Origin: a virus
Lineage: Duplodnaviria; Heunggongvirae; Uroviricota; Caudoviricetes
Virus record (IMG/VR): IMGVR_UViG_2663762948_000006
Location: 1 to 9,758 of that record
Direction: 5' to 3' (one strand)
DNA length: 9,758 bases
Shown piece by piece: positions 1 to 9,758 of the stretch (positions are counted from its first letter, which is position 1; every line of letters starts with the position of its first letter). Under the pieces are notes generated by a model. It did no database searches and was not told the origin of the DNA. It saw only the letters and a program-made list of their open reading frames with translations. The position numbers and the translations under genes were made by a program.

Positions 1-219
1 TTACATCCACATAATTTGCTGCCCTGATGGCAACGGGTGCGGCCTTACGGCGTGGACTTCTCCCGGCTTCACGATGTATCGCTGTACCGACTCATAAGTG
101 ATGAACGTGGCGCTGCAATTCACGTTCTGGCACTGATGATAACGCTCTTTTGTCGTGTCAGTGATATAGCGGCTTGTACGCGCATGTGCGGCATGCTGGC
201 ATAAAGGACAATGAAACAT
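1..219 (-). CDS. ogr: Ogr late-gene transcriptional activator (zinc-finger, P2 Ogr / P4 Delta family), 72 aa
   Basis: Translation from ATG at 217-219 gives MFHCPLCQHAAHARTSRYITDTTKERYHQCQNVNC..., with the CxxC...CxxxxC zinc-finger spacing and the 72-aa length of P2 Ogr. The 93-aa ORF in the track begins at an upstream TTG (280-282) and is probably an over-extension. SD-like GGAAGAGG lies about 8 nt upstream of the ATG on the minus strand. Confidence 0.9.
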   Translation of the reverse strand: MFHCPLCQHAAHARTSRYITDTTKERYHQCQNVNCSATFITYESVQRYIVKPGEVHAVRPHPLPSGQQIMWM

Positions 220-253
220 CGCGAGCACCTCTTCCGGTTTTGTTGATGGTGCC

Positions 254-282
254 ATTTTAGTTAATTTATCCTTACAAAACAA
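254..282 (-). promoter_or_regulatory. Putative sigma70 promoter for ogr (-35 TTGTTT, 17-bp spacer, -10 TAAAAT, read on minus strand)
   Basis: By eye: reverse complement of 277-282 is TTGTTT and of 254-259 is TAAAAT, 17 bp apart, about 35 nt upstream of the ogr ATG. No experimental support. Confidence 0.3.
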
Positions 283-300
283 ACAGATAAAACAAAAACA

Positions 301-1464
301 TCACTCATCATCTTCTGTTTCGTACTCCACATCAGAAAGCCTGACCTCAAGCTCTAAGGACGTCGTGAAGCCGCTATTATTCAGAAAATGTGTCACCTTA
401 GTGATTGTCCAGTCCTGCTCGTCTATGACGCGCTTAAAGCCAGACACTTTGACCGGTGTTTCCGTGTAAATATCTGCCCGACCGGTAGCCAGGCTGATGG
501 AGAACTCCGCAACGCCCCGTTGCAGTTTATCCCACTTCGCCTGAGCGGCGCGCATGGCCTGCGCTTTCGTGGCATATACCGTGGTCAGGGCAAAAACGTT
601 GTCAGCCTCACCGGCCATGTATTCACCTTCACGCGCTTCCGGTACTTTAGGCGCTTTCTTCTGCCTGACCGGTTTCGCTTTCGGGTGCTCCAGTGCGCGC
701 AGGTGTTTCTCTTTCTTTTTGCGTTTCAGTTTTACCTTCTGCTTTTGCGGCTTCGGGTCTTTAGTGTGTAGCCATTTTGCCGTTACACCGGTGTAGGCTC
801 CACGGTCAGCAATCGCAAAATGATGGCGGTCGCCGTCGCTGCGGGTTATGGTGACCTGCGGGATTTTTTTACCGCTGGCCGTCACTCCCTGCCCCGCTTT
901 GAGAAACAACAGTTTTCCCATTTTTACCGACACCTCACCGCCGTTGCGTTCTGCAAGACGGGTCAGGAATTTCGCATCAGACTCCTGCGACTGGTCGATG
1001 TGTGGAATTTTTATTCCGGCCAGTGACGGAGCGACACTGGCTTCCAGCCTGTTACGGGTGGCTATCGCCTTAACAATCGCACCGAGCGTGGTGTCATGCC
1101 AGGAGCCTTCCCGGCGGGAATTGAGCGTCCCGCGAAAATCTGCACTCCGGGCGCGGATGGTGACTACATCCGGTGCGCCCCGGTGTTCAACCTCATCAAC
1201 GGTAAATTTCCCTTTGCATACCAGGGCAAAACCTTTCCAGCCGATATACACCGTCAGGACAGCGCCACGAACCGGCAGCCCGACCTGCCCGTCGGCATCG
1301 TTCAGTTCAATATCAAGCTGGTCAGCCTCAAAGCCCCGGTTATCCGTCAGGGTCATGCTCATCAGACGGTCGCTGATATTGCCGGTAATATCCCTGCTGT
1401 CGAGCATCAGCATGTAATCCGGCGTCAGCGTACTGCCTGCATCAAATGTCAGCGCATCCAGCAT
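301..1464 (-). CDS. D: P2-type tail protein gpD (late control gene D), 387 aa
   Basis: 387-aa ORF, the length of P2 gpD, lying directly upstream of ogr as in P2 (T-U-D-ogr). The start ATG (1462-1464) overlaps the stop of the upstream gene as TAATG on the minus strand. Contains a Lys-rich basic segment. Confidence 0.88.
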   Translation of the reverse strand: MLDALTFDAGSTLTPDYMLMLDSRDITGNISDRLMSMTLTDNRGFEADQLDIELNDADGQVGLPVRGAVLTVYIGWKGFALVCKGKFTVDEVEHRGAPDVVTIRARSADFRGTLNSRREGSWHDTTLGAIVKAIATRNRLEASVAPSLAGIKIPHIDQSQESDAKFLTRLAERNGGEVSVKMGKLLFLKAGQGVTASGKKIPQVTITRSDGDRHHFAIADRGAYTGVTAKWLHTKDPKPQKQKVKLKRKKKEKHLRALEHPKAKPVRQKKAPKVPEAREGEYMAGEADNVFALTTVYATKAQAMRAAQAKWDKLQRGVAEFSISLATGRADIYTETPVKVSGFKRVIDEQDWTITKVTHFLNNSGFTTSLELEVRLSDVEYETEDDE

Positions 1465-1957: not shown

Positions 1958-2743
1958 TTAACCGTCATGCATCATGCTGGCACGGGCGCGCACACGTTTA
2001 TCCCGCTCGTATTTTTCGAGCGCATCCTGTAACTGGCGGTCAAGCTGTGTCCCCGGCGCAGTCCCCCCCGTCAGGCTGATGTGATATTCGTTTTTACTCT
2101 GGTCTACATAAGAGCGGCCAGCCGGTGCCGTGACCGGCTGATAAGCCTGATAGCCTGCATAAGAGCTGGTCGCCGGAATATAGTCACCGGTACCATACGT
2201 GGCGGTATGAGTTCTGGCGGCGGTCTGGTCAAGTGTGTCTGACTCTTTGTTGATAACACCGAGTTTTTCCAGTACCCAGTCAATACCACTGCGCAGTTTG
2301 TTGAACGCATTAAGCGGCAGCATCAACGCGTCAGCCAGTGCCTGCCCGAACATGACGCCCGTGTCACGGCAACGGTTCAGGGTGTCCTGGGTGGCTTTGA
2401 CCGGGGCAATCAGGTTTTTAAACCACTGCCACGCGGCCTGTAACTTTTCGCCCAGCCAGTCAAAAACCGGTTTAAGTGGCGTGAACAGTTCCCCCACCGG
2501 CGCAAATGCCGCTTTCAGCCCTTCAACCACACCACCAAAGAATGCGCTGACAGGCTCCCAGTATTTACGGATAAGCAACGCACCGGCGACAATGGCAGCC
2601 ACCACGGCCACAACCGGCCAGCTAATCGCCCCGATGGCCGTCATAACGGCACTGCCAACCGTCGTGAAGATTGCCCCCATTGCGCCTGCTGCCGCGATGA
2701 TGGCATTGATGCCGGTGATACCCATTCTGGTCGGGTGAACTGT
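1958..2743 (-). pseudogene. T: Tape-measure protein gpT, 3'-terminal remnant (about 255-261 codons of roughly 815); 5' part deleted
   Basis: The ORF ends 14 nt upstream of U as in P2 (T then U). The translation has a long Ala/Gly/Ile-rich hydrophobic segment and a C-terminal region typical of tape-measure proteins. The frame is closed by an in-frame stop at 2744-2746, so only the C-terminal third is present. First ATG is at 2723-2725. Confidence 0.8.
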
Positions 2744-3615
2744 TCAACCGGGGACGCGCCAGCGCCGCCGAACGCGTGGAAATCGACGTCAGTCATAACG
2801 CCCTTGCCGGAGGTCTTCTCTGTGCGGACGGCCAGTGGCGGCAGATTGTCACCATTGAGGACGCACTGAAAGGCGGCTGCACGCTGTTCGACATTGAGCA
2901 GCTCAAACGCGAAAACAGCGCCGACGATTTTAAAAACCTGTTCATGTGTGAATTTGTTGACGACAAGGCGTCGGTATTCCCGTTCGAGGAGCTGCAACGC
3001 TGCATGGTCGACACGCTGGAAGAATGGGAAGACTATGCGCCGTTTGCCGCCAATCCGTTCGGCTCCCGCCCGGTATGGATTGGTTACGACCCGTCACACC
3101 GTGGCGACAGCGCCGGATGCGTGGTGCTGGCACCGCCGGTGGTGGCCGGTGGCAAATTCAGAATACTTGAGCGTCACCAGTGGAAAGGCATGGACTTTGC
3201 CACCCAGGCGGAATCCATCCGCAAACTCACCAAAAAATATAACGTCGAATACATCGGTATTGATGCCACCGGCCTCGGTGTCGGCGTGTTCCAGCTCGTG
3301 CGCTCGTTCTATCCCGCCGCGCGCGACATCCGCTACACACCGGAAATGAAAACCGCAATGGTGCTCAAGGCAAAAGACGTTATCCGCCGTGGCTGTCTGG
3401 AATATGACGTCAGCGCCACCGACATCACCAGCTCGTTTATGGCTATCCGCAAGACCATGACCAGCAGCGGACGCAGCGCCACCTATGAGGCCAGCCGCAG
3501 CGAGGAAGCCAGCCACGCCGACCTCGCCTGGGCGACCATGCACGCTCTGTTAAATGAGCCACTCACCGCCGGTATCAGCACCCCGCTGACATCCACCATT
3601 CTGGAGTTTTACTGA
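2719..3615 (+). pseudogene. P: Terminase large subunit gpP, 3'-terminal remnant (nuclease-domain half); 5' half deleted
   Basis: The frame is open only from 2719 (in-frame stop at 2716-2718) and its first start codon is GTG at 2776. The translation carries terminase nuclease-domain-like motifs (WIGYDPSHRGDSAG, EYIGIDATGLGVG). Its stop overlaps the Q start (TGATG at 3613-3617), matching the P-Q order of P2. P2 gpP is about 590 aa; only about 280-300 codons remain. Confidence 0.8.
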
Positions 3616-4649
3616 TGAGCAAGAAAAAAGGGAAAACACCGCAACCTGCGGCAAAAAAAATGACCGCCAGCGCCCCGAAAATGGAGGCATTCACCTTTGG
3701 CGAACCGGTGCCGGTACTCGACCGCCGTGACATTCTGGATTACGTCGAATGCATCAGTAACGGCAGATGGTATGAGCCACCGGTCAGCTTTACCGGTCTG
3801 GCAAAAAGCCTGCGTGCTGCCGTGCATCACAGCTCCCCGATTTACGTCAAACGTAATATTCTGGCTTCAACGTTTATCCCGCATCCGTGGCTTTCCCAGC
3901 AGGATTTCAGCCGCTTTGTGCTGGATTTTCTGGTGTTCGGTAATGCGTTTCTGGAAAAGCGTTACAGCACCACCGGTAAGGTCATCAGACTGGAAACCTC
4001 ACCGGCAAAATATACCCGCCGTGGCGTGGAGGAGGATGTTTACTGGTGGGTGCCGTCCTTCAACGAGCCGACAGCCTTCGCGCCCGGCTCCGTGTTTCAC
4101 CTGCTGGAGCCGGATATTAATCAGGAGCTGTACGGCCTGCCGGAATATCTCAGCGCCCTTAACTCTGCCTGGCTGAATGAGTCGGCCACGCTGTTCCGCC
4201 GCAAGTATTACGAAAACGGCGCTCATGCCGGATATATCATGTACGTCACCGATGCCGTGCAGGATCGCAACGATATCGAAATGCTTCGCGAAAACATGGT
4301 CAAGTCGAAAGGCCGCAACAACTTTAAAAATCTGTTTCTCTATGCCCCACAGGGGAAAGCCGACGGTATTAAAATTATCCCCCTCAGTGAAGTGGCAACG
4401 AAGGACGATTTTTTTAATATCAAAAAAGCCAGCGCCGCTGACCTGCTGGACGCACACCGCATCCCCTTTCAGTTGATGGGCGGCAAGCCGGAGAACGTCG
4501 GATCGCTGGGTGATATTGAAAAAGTGGCAAAGGTCTTTGTCCGCAATGAGCTTATCCCGCTACAGGACAGAATTCGGGAAATAAACGGCTGGCTCGGCCA
4601 GGAGGTCATCCGCTTTAAAAACTATTCACTGGAGACTGACAACGGCTGA
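3615..4649 (+). CDS. Q: Portal (capsid vertex) protein gpQ, 344 aa
   Basis: 344-aa ORF, the length of P2 gpQ, immediately next to cos as in P2. GGAG lies 8 nt upstream of the ATG. Translationally coupled to the P remnant. Confidence 0.9.
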   Translation: MSKKKGKTPQPAAKKMTASAPKMEAFTFGEPVPVLDRRDILDYVECISNGRWYEPPVSFTGLAKSLRAAVHHSSPIYVKRNILASTFIPHPWLSQQDFSRFVLDFLVFGNAFLEKRYSTTGKVIRLETSPAKYTRRGVEEDVYWWVPSFNEPTAFAPGSVFHLLEPDINQELYGLPEYLSALNSAWLNESATLFRRKYYENGAHAGYIMYVTDAVQDRNDIEMLRENMVKSKGRNNFKNLFLYAPQGKADGIKIIPLSEVATKDDFFNIKKASAADLLDAHRIPFQLMGGKPENVGSLGDIEKVAKVFVRNELIPLQDRIREINGWLGQEVIRFKNYSLETDNG

Positions 4650-4654
4650 ACATC

Positions 4655-4676
4655 GCCGCCTGCGGGCGGCTTTTTT
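4655..4676 (+). terminator. Rho-independent terminator downstream of Q
   Basis: GCCGCC (4655-4660), loop TGCG, GGCGGC (4665-4670), followed by TTTTTT (4671-4676), starting 6 nt after the Q stop codon. Confidence 0.55.
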
Positions 4677-4818
4677 ACACCCCGCCATCACGCCCTCACA
4701 CGCTCATCACCGCACAAAAAATCCCGCAGACACACCAACGCCTCAACGGGCAGACTAAGCGCCGTCACGACGCGCTCAGACGCTGAAAAAATAAAATCAG
4801 CACCACCGCCAGCGCGCA

Positions 4819-4837
4819 GTGCTTTCCCCGCCTCGCC
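4819..4837. other. P2/P4-type cos site (19-nt cohesive-end sequence)
   Basis: Plus strand 4819-4837 is gtgctttccccgcctcgcc, whose reverse complement GGCGAGGCGGGGAAAGCAC is the 19-nt P2 cohesive end as I recall it. The flanking sequence toward Q also matches my recollection of the P2 left end. Confidence 0.72.
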
Positions 4838-6177: not shown

Positions 6178-6220
6178 CTCCAGCAGCACTGGAAGCATGT
6201 TTCAGTACTGCTGGGGTTTT
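6178..6220. terminator. Stem-loop (about 12-14 bp stem, one mismatch) followed by a T-run on the plus strand; possible bidirectional terminator
   Basis: CCAGCAGCACTG (6180-6191) pairs with CAGTACTGCTGG (6203-6214) around an 11-nt loop, then GGTTTT (6215-6220). It sits immediately after the stop of orf67 (6224) on the minus strand, but the U-tract is on the plus-strand side. Confidence 0.3.
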
Positions 6221-6223
6221 CTA

Positions 6224-6427
6224 TCAACAACGTGGTAGCAGTGCAATTTTAGACTGTTCTATATCGTTAAACCGCACGTAATTATCCCGGACTATTTCGG
6301 CACACCCGACCAACTCGTCGGGCGTCAGATTTTCGTTGACCATAATCTGCTGTAGACGGTGAACAATAGCCATCAGCTTGATATTTTTAGTGTTATGTTG
6401 CGGTATCTCGCCTGGTATTCTGTGCAT
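6224..6427 (-). CDS. Hypothetical small protein, 67 aa (from ATG at 6425-6427)
   Basis: The ATG overlaps the TAA stop of the upstream DUF3850-like gene (TAATG on minus strand), suggesting translational coupling. No recognisable motif. The track ORF (6224..6439) starts at an upstream GTG. Confidence 0.35.
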   Translation of the reverse strand: MHRIPGEIPQHNTKNIKLMAIVHRLQQIMVNENLTPDELVGCAEIVRDNYVRFNDIEQSKIALLPRC

Positions 6428-6882
6428 TATCCAAGCCACCCGTTTTGCTTTGCACGCTCAATCTGTTCATCTGAATAGTTCCATGCTCCATCCGTGGCAA
6501 CCATTGCCCCGCCAGACATCCCCGTCTCTGGTTCATACATAACAGCAAGGCCGAGCTGATGCATAATTTCATGATTAATTCTGAATACCAGACCACGCTC
6601 ACTAAGTTCTTTCCAGTTCACAATCTCATATGCGCCTGTATTAAGCTGCTCAATACTTAGCAAGACATAATCTTCCAGCCAGTCTGACAGGTCAGTAACA
6701 TCTGTTATCCGGGCTTCAACCTTTCGCCCCGTATACACACCCTGCACCCATTCATGCAAAATCAACGTGTCCCCGCGCTCATAATTACGGTCATTTTTCC
6801 GAAACTCTGCGCGTTTCTTTCCTTCCAGCACAAGGTCGAAATATTTTGCGTGCAGCTTTACCTCGTGAATTTTTGCCATCAT
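6427..6882 (-). CDS. DUF3850/ASCH-like (PUA-fold) domain protein with a C-terminal HExxH motif, about 151 aa
   Basis: The N-terminal region (KIHEVKLHAKYFDLVLEGKKRAEFRKNDRNYERGDTLILHEW...YTGR) resembles the DUF3850/ASCH-like family as I recall it. The C-terminal part contains HEIMH (6559-6573), an HExxH zinc-binding-like motif. The likely start is the ATGATG at 6877-6882, which overlaps the TGA stop of A (6879-6881); the track ORF extends 11 codons further upstream into A. Confidence 0.65.
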   Translation of the reverse strand: MMAKIHEVKLHAKYFDLVLEGKKRAEFRKNDRNYERGDTLILHEWVQGVYTGRKVEARITDVTDLSDWLEDYVLLSIEQLNTGAYEIVNWKELSERGLVFRINHEIMHQLGLAVMYEPETGMSGGAMVATDGAWNYSDEQIERAKQNGWLG

Positions 6883-8729
6883 GTCCACTCCATTACTGTT
6901 GAGAATCCCGGCCACTCATCAGCGACCGGATACGTGAATTTTTTCCCGTCATAATTTACAGTCGCGCCACGCGCCAGCGCCTCAAGCTCCCATCGCTGCG
7001 GCCTGATACCGTTCTGAGCAAGGTCAACGCGGATACGGGTGATTTGCATTCGTTCCGACCGGGTCAGTCTGGCAGATGGTGCAATTTCATGCGGTTTTAA
7101 CGGGCTTCCGTTTCTTTGCTGACGGTTTGGCGTTCTCATGTCGTATTTTAATGCGCCCCTGAGCGCCCTCACGACCTCCGGTTCATTCCATTCAATAACA
7201 CCGTCATCAACCAGATTAAGCACTGCTGCGGCGTGCTCAGAAGGTGTGGGAGCCGGTAACGAAGTATCACCACCGGTGAGCTTTCCACAGTTATTGACAG
7301 GACTCCGAGGCGCGGCGATGCCGCTTTTTAAAGTCAAAGGCTCAACGACCGGAACTTTCGGCACAATGCGCCAGTCCGTCGTTCTGGTGATATGAATATG
7401 ACGCGCGCCGAGATGCGGCGCGTAAATGCCGACCACTCTCTCGACTTCTTCCTCGTACTCGTTAACGTCATCCGACGGGCTACGGGCAACCCTGACAGTC
7501 TGACAATCGCGCGGGACATTTGCCCCACCCTGCGCGCTGATATACAACGCAAAATCACCACTGTCTGCGGCAGCGCGAGCAGCCTCGACGCGTTCGTCAA
7601 ACTCATCAGCAATACTGACGCCGCGAGGCAATTTGCGTAGTTCACGGTAAGCCCCCATTGTCGGCAGTCCAACCGTTTTAAATTGCGGGATGCGCCACGT
7701 TGACGCCCATGCGGTAACAGCCGCGGCAGTATCTTTAAGCGGCTTACCGGTATCGTTATCGAGCTGACCATCCAGTGCATAGCCGTCGATATTTTTTGAA
7801 ATGTATTTCGCGATATATCCCGCAGCACCGCCCCGGTTAAGGTGCTTTGCCTGAAAACGGTTTCGCGCGGCTCCTCTTTCGTCACCATCCTCTTTGAGCG
7901 CATAGCGACGCATGATTTCGATAATCTGGTTACGCTGGCGTGGATTACAAAAAAGCATCATATGCCAGTGCGGCGTTCCGTCGTGGTGTGGCTCGACGAC
8001 ACGCAAACCGTAGACCTGTAAATCATTATCCTTGAATGCCGTGCGCATCAGGCTCCAGATGCGGCAGAGATAACGCTGCGCATCCTTTGGATTAAATGCC
8101 TCATCGTTCCAGCCGTGATTAAGCTGAACGGTTTTACTTTCGCCTTTTCTGACCTGACGAGTCGGGTGATACTTTGACGGCGCGGTCAGCGTGATAAACA
8201 TCCCCACATCACCCTCTGCGGCGGCGTAACGCTCAATACCGGCAATGGTGTTCATCAGCTCCATCCGGCGAATTTCAGGATTAGAAATACTGCCCATCAC
8301 CTTACTGATAAGGTCGATGCGCTCGCCGGTTTCCCTGTTTTCAAGGTCACACGATTTAAGAAATTCCAGATTTGCCTGGCGGCGCGCACGCACATCACGA
8401 ATGGCGTGTTTACTGGCATACATCATGAAAAGCTGCGATGAGATACGGGCGGCAAACTTTTTCAGCTCCTTGTCATTCATTCCCGGCAGGCGCGCATAGT
8501 GGTCACGCTCTGCCAGAAACAGCAACGACGCGTCGGTGTTCATTTCATGGCGCTGATTCACACGCTCAATGCGCGGCCATAAACGACGCTGAAAAGTGGA
8601 TGTGAGAAAATAAAACCCGTGCACCGGGCTTTTATTACGCCGGATGTAGTCATAGCGTGAAGTAAACAGCGAGCGCAAAAAGTAAGGCAGGCGATTTATC
8701 GTGGATAACTCTATATAAAAATTACATTT
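6879..8729 (-). pseudogene. A: Rolling-circle replication initiator gpA, 5'-truncated (about 600-616 C-terminal codons of 761 retained)
   Basis: The translation contains the paired-tyrosine motif GYIAKYISK (Y288 and Y292 of the track ORF). P2 gpA is 761 aa with active-site tyrosines that I recall as Y450 and Y454; the offset of 162 plus 599 equals 761, so the C-terminus aligns exactly. The frame is closed by a stop at 8730-8732, the first start in frame is TTG (8676-8678) with no SD, and no B, cox or C genes lie upstream. Confidence 0.8.
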
Positions 8730-8777: not shown

Positions 8778-9758
8778 ATGGCAATTAAGAAGCTCGATGA
8801 TGGTCGCTATGAAGTGGACATTAGACCTCGCGGTCGCGACGGAAAACGCATCCGCAGGAAATTTGAAAGAAAAGCTGAAGCACTAGCATTTGAGCGATAC
8901 ACAATCGCCAATGCCAGTCAGAAAGAATGGGGAGGCCAGCGAGCAGACCGCCGAACTTTGACAGAATTGCTCGACATCTGGTGGAAATACCACGGGCAAA
9001 ACCACGAGCATGGGACAAAAGAGTTTAATCATCTGCTCAAAACCATCAGCGGCATAGGTGATATACCAGTGAGTCGGATGAACAAAAGGGCTTTGATGGA
9101 TTATCGCTCCATGCGACTACGTGATGGCATCAGTGCTGCAACGATAAACCGCGACATGTACCGATTATCCGGCATGTTCACAAAATTAATTCAATTGGAT
9201 GAATTTTCCGGGCAACACCCAATTCACGGACTGCCGCCACTGACGGAGGCTAACCCTGAAATGACGTTCCTGGAAAAAGCAGAAATCGAAAAACTGCTAA
9301 ATGTTTTGACTGGTGATGACTTACTTGTCGCGCTTTTATGTCTGAGCACTGGAGGAAGGTGGACGGAAGTTGCCACGCTAAAACCAGCACAGATTACAAG
9401 TTGCAGGGTTACCTTCCTGAAAACCAAAAACGGTAAAAAGCGAACAGTGCCGATTTCTGAGGAACTGGAGAAAAAAGTTAAAGAGGAGGCCAGCGCCAAA
9501 TTGTTCAAGGTAGATTATGAGAAGTTTTGCGGGATTTTACGCAGAGTGAAACCTGATATACCTCCCAATCAGGCAACCCACATTCTGCGGCATACATTCG
9601 CAAGCCATTTCATGATGAATGGGGGCAACATAATTGCACTGCAACAGATTCTGGGGCATGCGAGCATTCAGCAGACAATGACCTATGCGCACCTTGCGCC
9701 TGACTACCTGCAGAACGCCGTCGCTCTGAATCCACTAAAAGGCGGAGTGACGTTATAA
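8778..9758 (+). CDS. int: Tyrosine recombinase, P2-type integrase (326 aa from ATG 8778; alternative start ATG 8748 gives 336 aa)
   Basis: N-terminus MAIKKLDDGRYEVDIRP... matches my recollection of P2-family Int. The C-terminal catalytic region carries the tyrosine-recombinase signature (HILRHTFASHFMMNGG...LGHASIQQTMTYAHL). GGAGGG lies 8 nt upstream of ATG 8778; the upstream ATG at 8748 has no SD. Confidence 0.9.
   Translation: MAIKKLDDGRYEVDIRPRGRDGKRIRRKFERKAEALAFERYTIANASQKEWGGQRADRRTLTELLDIWWKYHGQNHEHGTKEFNHLLKTISGIGDIPVSRMNKRALMDYRSMRLRDGISAATINRDMYRLSGMFTKLIQLDEFSGQHPIHGLPPLTEANPEMTFLEKAEIEKLLNVLTGDDLLVALLCLSTGGRWTEVATLKPAQITSCRVTFLKTKNGKKRTVPISEELEKKVKEEASAKLFKVDYEKFCGILRRVKPDIPPNQATHILRHTFASHFMMNGGNIIALQQILGHASIQQTMTYAHLAPDYLQNAVALNPLKGGVTL

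Follow-up and report, generated by a model that had tools for sequence, protein, structure and literature searches.

Overall structure of the prophage remnant

The window, by which we mean the whole 9,758-nucleotide stretch of DNA analyzed here, was found to be 100% identical to positions 6140-15897 of LIVB01000020.1 (L024) in the E. coli assembly GCA_001419895.1. The list of open reading frames (ORFs) and a Pfam scan revealed the gene order of an integrated P2-type prophage running from attR to attL, and all of the backbone genes were colinear with P2 (Table 1). The integrase gene adjoins cpxP in the source contig, and the cpxP-fieF interval is also the attachment site of related prophages. 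In the position that the old/tin genes occupy in P2, the window contained a cargo segment that was at least 99.4% identical in 25 complete E. coli genomes, where the examined cases were intact P2-like prophages. The single ORF noted in this segment gave no Pfam or PADLOC match. Additionally, the ori nick site was kept at about window position 7306.

We also observed that the remnant was a mosaic. The ogr-D-U-T' block was 99.7% identical to P2, whereas 'P-Q and A were only approximately 97% identical, a pattern that suggests recombination with a P2-like phage.

Table 1. Coordinates of the features identified in the window.
Feature	Position	Strand	Description
ogr	1-219	minus	72-aa C4 zinc-finger late-gene activator; PF04606 and identity to P2 Ogr
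Shine-Dalgarno GAGG	228-231	minus	8 nt 5' of the ogr ATG; read from the sequence
ogr sigma-70 promoter	254-282	minus	-35 TTGTTT (282-277), 17-nt spacer, -10 TAAAAT (259-254)
D (tail)	301-1464	minus	ORF intact; PF05954; 99.7% identical to P2; promoterless distal F operon
Operator-like GTTGT-N12-CCA	598-617	plus	Antisense inside D; present in intact P2 at 23657
U (tail)	1464-1943	minus	ORF intact, promoterless; L024 counterpart product of 159 aa with PF06995 Phage_P2_GpU
T' (3' 766 bp of tape-measure gene T)	1958-2723	minus	Colinear with P2 to 21532; 5' end lost
T'/'P junction of the 19.4-kb deletion	2719-2723		Sequence read directly: GGTGATA, joined to CCCATTCTGG
'P (3' 897 bp of terminase large-subunit gene)	2719-3615	plus	Pfam Terminase_6C; 5' end and pP lost
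Q (portal)	3615-4649	plus	PF04860; ORF intact, promoterless
tQ terminator	4657-4678		Also recovered by the terminator scan
cos cohesive-end sequence	4819-4837		Identical to the P2 cos 19-mer
Cargo segment	4867-6260		37% GC; contains the 298-aa ORF
Cargo ORF, 298 aa	5001-5897	minus	PHROG 29586 (unknown function) is the only match
Operator-like GTTGT-N12-CCA	6212-6231	minus	Edge of the cargo segment
DUF3850/ASCH gene			Present in the window (Pfam scan)
Replication gene A, truncated	6879-8678	minus	
Integrase (int)	8778-9758	plus	Diverged from P2 int

Deletion map of the remnant

The window was mapped against P2 (NC_001895, whose coordinates are used for P2 throughout), and the junction was also checked by blastn against phage 12474III. 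The P2 segments kept in the window were 21532-24254, 1-2117, cos, 28193-28484 and 28778-30539. The segment from 2118 to 21531 was absent; it measures 19,414 bp and comprises every gene from P' to T'. With T located at 19850-22297 and P at 1221-2993 in P2, the deletion joined the remaining part of T to P, which was kept only up to P2 2117.

According to the P2 annotation, the absent segment contains the activator-binding site of pO/pP at 3057-3087 with starts at 3016 and 3127, that of pV at 10239-10266 with a start at 10308, and that of pF at 17555-17583 with a start at 17626-8. The initial annotation had placed the late promoters P, O, V and F in deleted DNA, and the map confirmed this point, as all of the annotated operators and the four starts fell within the missing interval. 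The ogr gene of the window is thus an orphan activator whose four late promoters are gone. Because pF was deleted, D, U and T' form the tail of an F operon without a promoter, and 'P and Q form a P operon tail that is promoterless owing to the deletion of pP. T' and 'P diverge from their junction, so no fusion transcript arises.

Two other deletions were found in the remaining part of the element. Gene A had an in-frame deletion of 99 codons (junction 8417-8420), and another deletion, with endpoints at A codon 54 and 76 bp upstream of int, covered orf83-orf80, B, orf78, cox and C and left A without its start codon and first 53 codons (junction 8702-8708). The three deletions have left the element without immunity, excision control or a functioning replication initiator and have removed nearly all morphogenesis genes. 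It is not a functional P2-type prophage; its late operons, immunity genes (C, cox) and replication genes (A, B) are incomplete. The alignments overlapped by 4-7 bp at all three deletion junctions, and the shared bases read directly at the T'/'P junction amounted to approximately 2 bp (TA).

The exact T'/'P and A/int junctions of the window were absent from all complete E. coli genomes, and exact junction searches of genome_contigs and metagenome_contigs gave zero matches. Likewise, there were no existing records of the junction-specific products, namely the 255-aa T', 599-aa A' and 279-aa 'P proteins.

The ogr gene, its product and its promoter

The initial annotation, which had reported that ogr was retained, assigned the gene to positions 1-282. 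This interval proved to be the longest mechanical ORF; the true coding sequence covers 1-219, and the TTG at 282 belongs to the -35 element. The gene itself was intact. Its 72-residue product was identical to P2 Ogr (NP_046785) at 72 of 72 positions and matched the full PF04606 Ogr_Delta profile with a score of 76.9 bits (gathering score, 26.3; E value, 1.1e-21). A regular expression recovered the zinc motif C4-X2-C7-X22-C30-X4-C35, which corresponds to the C-X2-C-X22-C-X4-C zinc-binding motif described for Ogr/Delta activators (PMC3931495), and Tyr42 was present. The assembly collection lists the identical protein in 59,910 blocks. Judging from these sequence features, the protein would activate promoters with a dyad operator centered at about -55 through RNA polymerase alpha.

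The 81 bp located 5' of the ogr ATG were identical to P2 23955-24035, and the P2 record annotates the ogr -35 (23973-5) and -10 (23996-24002) elements within this stretch. The suggestion in the initial annotation that ogr has its own plausible sigma-70 promoter was therefore well founded. A generic sigma-70 scan of the window did not list this promoter because it matches the consensus at only 8 of 12 positions; the -35 element contributes 3 matches of a possible 6. Upon comparison of 14 gap-free loci out of 15 P2-type ogr loci, both intact and remnant, all ogr substitutions were found to be synonymous except A57V in K-12. The -10 hexamer was invariant among these 14 loci, and the -35 hexamer differed at one position in a single locus, the metagenomic remnant L021 described below.

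Search for Ogr operators in the element

The literature consensus for Ogr operators is TGT-N12-ACA (PMC3931495). The search for this dyad that had been proposed along with the initial annotation gave 0 matches in the window, but the pattern was also absent from the late promoters of intact 12474III and of P2 itself. Because the pattern fails on these positive controls, the null result in the window is meaningless. Inspection of the annotated P2 operators revealed the forms TGT-N12-CCA (pO/pP and pF) and TGT-N12-CAA (pV), none of which fits TGT-N12-ACA. We derived the pattern GTTGT-N12-CMA from the three annotated P2 sites; for searches, it is preferable to the widely quoted consensus. In P2, it recovered the three annotated operators and one extra site, which lies antisense inside D (23657).

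In the window, GTTGT-N12-CMA had two matches compared with 0.78 expected, and two or more matches were present in 43 of 200 shuffled sequences. At pO, pV and pF, the operator center is located 55.5-57.5 nt upstream of the annotated start, and a -10-like element precedes the start. Neither match in the window reproduced this geometry. The sole -10-like element associated with the site inside D was TACTTT, which is approximately 8 nt too near the site, and the site at the edge of the cargo segment had no -10-like element at the spacing of pO, pV and pF. No further Ogr operators were found in the 6.1-kb host flank of L024. We judged both sites to be chance matches and concluded that the element has no credible Ogr-dependent promoter. 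The claim that ogr lacks a cognate target in cis was thus upheld by the revised pattern, which yielded matches at chance level only and with the wrong promoter geometry.

Distribution of orphan ogr genes

To compare the frequency of ogr with that of other P2 genes, we surveyed 5426 complete E. coli genomes with 300-bp probes. The ogr probe was found in 2071 genomes, compared with 1671 for pF/FI, 1635 for Q, 1575 for A and 1503 for N. From the numbers for ogr and pF/FI, it follows that at least approximately 400 genomes contain ogr without the late region. The K-12-type PR-X junction was present in 359 genomes. The excess of ogr is therefore mostly one inherited PR-X event, inflated by laboratory strains, and the remainder consists of scattered remnants. 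Because this one ancestral remnant dominates, the excess neither proves nor excludes selection.

In the annotation of K-12 MG1655, the cryptic prophage PR-X is a 629-bp element consisting of ogrK and a 219-bp D pseudogene. The ogrK gene is annotated as "prophage P2 late control protein OgrK", and the NCBI pipeline gives genes of this kind the name "prophage transcriptional regulator OgrK". Further remnants that kept ogr were of different kinds. One strain, isolateD, and six other complete genomes contained a remnant with a T'/'P junction at cpxP-fieF, and strain F247 contained a remnant with an FI'/'Q junction adjoining pflB. In the metagenome contig L021 (ENA ERZ18534206 NODE_528), ogr and 71 bp of D were fused to a Q stub at positions 11506-11908; this remnant is located at the cpxP-fieF site and carries the same cargo as the window, and ogr is the only gene of its late region that is left. 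The stepwise decay of a prophage is illustrated by the remnants that share one attachment site but arose through independent deletions. An orphan ogr is already a known state: it is the annotated condition of K-12, it is textbook knowledge for K-12 and B, and it occurs in several hundred other genomes.

A side observation concerned gene A. Many RefSeq E. coli chromosomes start approximately 160 bp inside a P2-type gene A, for example NZ_CP064847.1, NZ_CP047461.1 and NZ_OY754407.1 (matches 160-865). These starts probably stem from automatic start-fixing tools that take a "replication" gene as an origin marker.

Expression of ogr and the effect of IS150

Slettan et al. reportedly showed in 1992 that K-12 and B transcribe their cryptic ogr genes constitutively and that these genes allow P2 phage with an ogr deletion to grow. 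The same work is said to have described the A57V change in K-12 Ogr, which we re-derived independently from the locus comparison. The constitutive RpoD promoters listed on the basis of genomic SELEX include the spacer between ogrK and yegZ in K-12 (PMC3946193). In uninduced BL21(DE3), ogr cDNA was amplified, and pF-GFP circuits in this strain showed basal fluorescence (bioRxiv 10.1101/2022.11.09.515794). P4 is trans-activated by Ogr, and the late genes of both P2 and P4 are driven by Delta and Ogr (PMC7552001, PMC8628076). By analogy with K-12 and B, the ogr copy of the window is probably expressed and active in trans.

In the source contig, the P2 homology breaks off within the stem of the terminator shared by ogr and the F operon, 25 nt past the ogr stop codon. 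The left end of IS150 follows at L024 15898-15999, directly beyond window position 1, and the contig ends there, before attR and fieF are reached. The insJ gene of IS150 (starting with MSKPKYPFEK) has the same orientation as ogr. The terminator hairpin of P2 (-21.3 kcal/mol, z -3.97) was gone in the source contig (z 0.42). With the terminator lost, transcription of ogr would continue into IS150, and the insertion could destabilize the ogr mRNA.

Interpretation of the retained ogr gene

We consider it likely that the window represents a decaying P2-type prophage in which ogr is a positional relic, probably still made and acting only in trans. The prophage would have entered decay at cpxP-fieF, with ogr as its last gene at the attR end. 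The 19.4-kb internal deletion that joined T' to 'P would have removed the three Ogr operators, the four late promoters and most of the structural genes, and the additional deletions would have taken C, cox, B and the 5' end of A. On this account, ogr would owe its survival to its position and not to a remaining role within the element, as it persists because a terminal gene is seldom reached by internal deletions. The native constitutive sigma-70 promoter, the ribosome-binding site and the wild-type zinc-finger protein have all been kept. Since promoter, ribosome-binding site and protein are intact, low-level production of Ogr probably continues, and since there is no operator in cis, Ogr could act only in trans. 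The protein is expected to bind a TGT-N12-(C/A)CA-type operator approximately 55 nt upstream of late promoters and to recruit RNA polymerase. Its candidate targets would be the late promoters of superinfecting or co-resident P2-like phages, or the sid and late-leftward promoters of P4-like satellites. Being a relic and acting in trans, which the initial annotation had offered as alternatives, are not exclusive, and the evidence fits a relic that is probably still trans-active; we infer that this copy is expressed, active in trans and neutral for the host.

Ogr might instead have a target within the element, with the site at 598-617 (plus strand) or the site at 6212-6231 (minus strand) driving a transcript, for example that of the 298-aa cargo gene. 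Both sites fit GTTGT-N12-CCA, as do the operators of pO/pP and pF, and the second lies upstream of the cargo ORF on the same strand. However, the cargo ATG is approximately 330 nt away from this site, the site in D is antisense and also occurs in intact P2, which has no annotated promoter there, 43 of 200 shuffled sequences contain at least as many matches, and the fixed distance to a -10-like element was found at neither site, so that a target in cis is extremely improbable. Alternatively, ogr could be a silent relic if IS150 in its terminator, or regional silencing, prevented the production of useful amounts of Ogr. The loss of the terminator hairpin in the source contig and the weak promoter, with its poorly matching -35 element, are in line with such silence, but the promoter, the Shine-Dalgarno sequence and the ORF were untouched and the same promoter is active in the K-12 and B remnants. 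In addition, a lost terminator usually gives read-through, here into the IS150 insJ gene of the same orientation, and not silence. We regard a silent gene as unlikely, and what weight it receives is mainly due to the IS150 insertion.

A further explanation is that selection keeps ogr for a benefit to the host. Constitutive Ogr might interfere with an incoming P2-like phage by mis-timing its late expression, or it might prime resident P4-like satellites, which carry defense systems, for a faster response. In favor of this explanation, ogr alone is intact in K-12 PR-X and in the D'/Q' remnant L021, the number of genomes matched by the ogr probe exceeds those of the other P2 probes by about 400-570, and the changes in remnant ogr genes are synonymous only. 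P4-like satellites are described as very common in Enterobacterales (PMC8628076). These points are met by others, in that 359 of the excess genomes derive from one ancestral PR-X junction, leaving few independent events, and the intact phages show equally synonymous-only changes, so that this pattern is perhaps inherited and not maintained. Geometry can also spare a terminal ogr, and int at the opposite end was spared as well in the window, in isolateD and in L021. Moreover, Slettan et al. are said to have found in 1992 that ogr-defective P2 was helped and not hindered by the cryptic ogr, which counts against this explanation. Selection for host benefit is accordingly quite unlikely in our view. 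A more specific form of this idea, in which orphan ogr is repeatedly retained because low constitutive Ogr serves the host as a sensor or decoy, priming resident P4-like satellites with their defense hotspots or upsetting the timing of late expression in incoming P2-like phages, is very doubtful. If it were true, the activator of a dead prophage would have joined the anti-phage wiring of the cell. The excess of ogr on which host benefit would be based is mostly one ancestral event, and the rest is explained by the terminal position of ogr.

Under the preferred reading of a decaying prophage with a positional relic, strains with an orphan ogr probably supply Ogr in trans. Such strains would complement ogr-defective P2, and the Ogr that they provide would increase the background signal of synthetic circuits built on pF and could also affect P4-like satellites.

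Comparison with known systems

We compared the remnant with intact P2, the satellite P4, the cryptic ogr loci of K-12 and B and the isolateD-type remnant. The Ogr protein and promoter region of intact P2 are identical to those of the window, and the block from ogr to T' shows the near-identity noted above (99.7%). In intact P2, however, Ogr has four targets in cis (pP, pO, pV and pF), all of which are deleted in the window remnant, and ogr is additionally transcribed late by read-through from pF, which the remnant has lost as well.

The window resembles P4 Delta in that a late activator is encoded on an element without the structural genes that it activates; Delta accordingly acts in trans on a helper (PMC8628076). 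In contrast, Delta belongs to a dedicated satellite that has genes for replication (alpha), capsid size (sid, psu) and derepression (epsilon) as well as promoters of its own that depend on Ogr/Delta, and the window contains none of these. The P4-like core genes searched for (alpha primase-helicase, sid, psu, delta, epsilon/ash and alpA) were absent from the ORFs and Pfam matches of the window. We also considered the remnant, with its int, cos, ori and ogr, as a P4-like mobilizable satellite and rejected this assignment in view of the missing core genes, the crippled A gene and the IS150 on the attR side. The window element is a deletion product and not a satellite.

The situation of the window is that of the cryptic ogr of K-12 PR-X and E. 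coli B, where, as in the window, an intact ogr with its native promoter is found and all late promoters are lost. The promoter hexamers of K-12 ogrK are the same as those of the window, and the protein differs only by A57V. PR-X is a 629-bp element at trhP-yegR, whereas the window remnant is at least 9.8 kb long and located at cpxP-fieF. Unlike PR-X, the window remnant keeps D, U, T', 'P, Q, cos, the cargo, a crippled A and int, and it has IS150 in its ogr terminator.

The isolateD-type remnant of seven complete genomes shares with the window the cpxP-fieF site, the kind of T'/'P deletion and the retained ogrK. At its junction (L002 9103-9107), the P-side endpoint (P2 about 2117) was within 2 bp of that of the window. 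The T endpoints were different, at P2 21149 compared with 21532 in the window, so the isolateD type contains 383 bp more of T. Its A-B-cox-C region is intact, its cargo is not that of the window, and the two are approximately 3% diverged. The shared P-side endpoint reflects either an old common deletion that was later trimmed and, through recombination, partly overwritten or a deletion hotspot in gene P.
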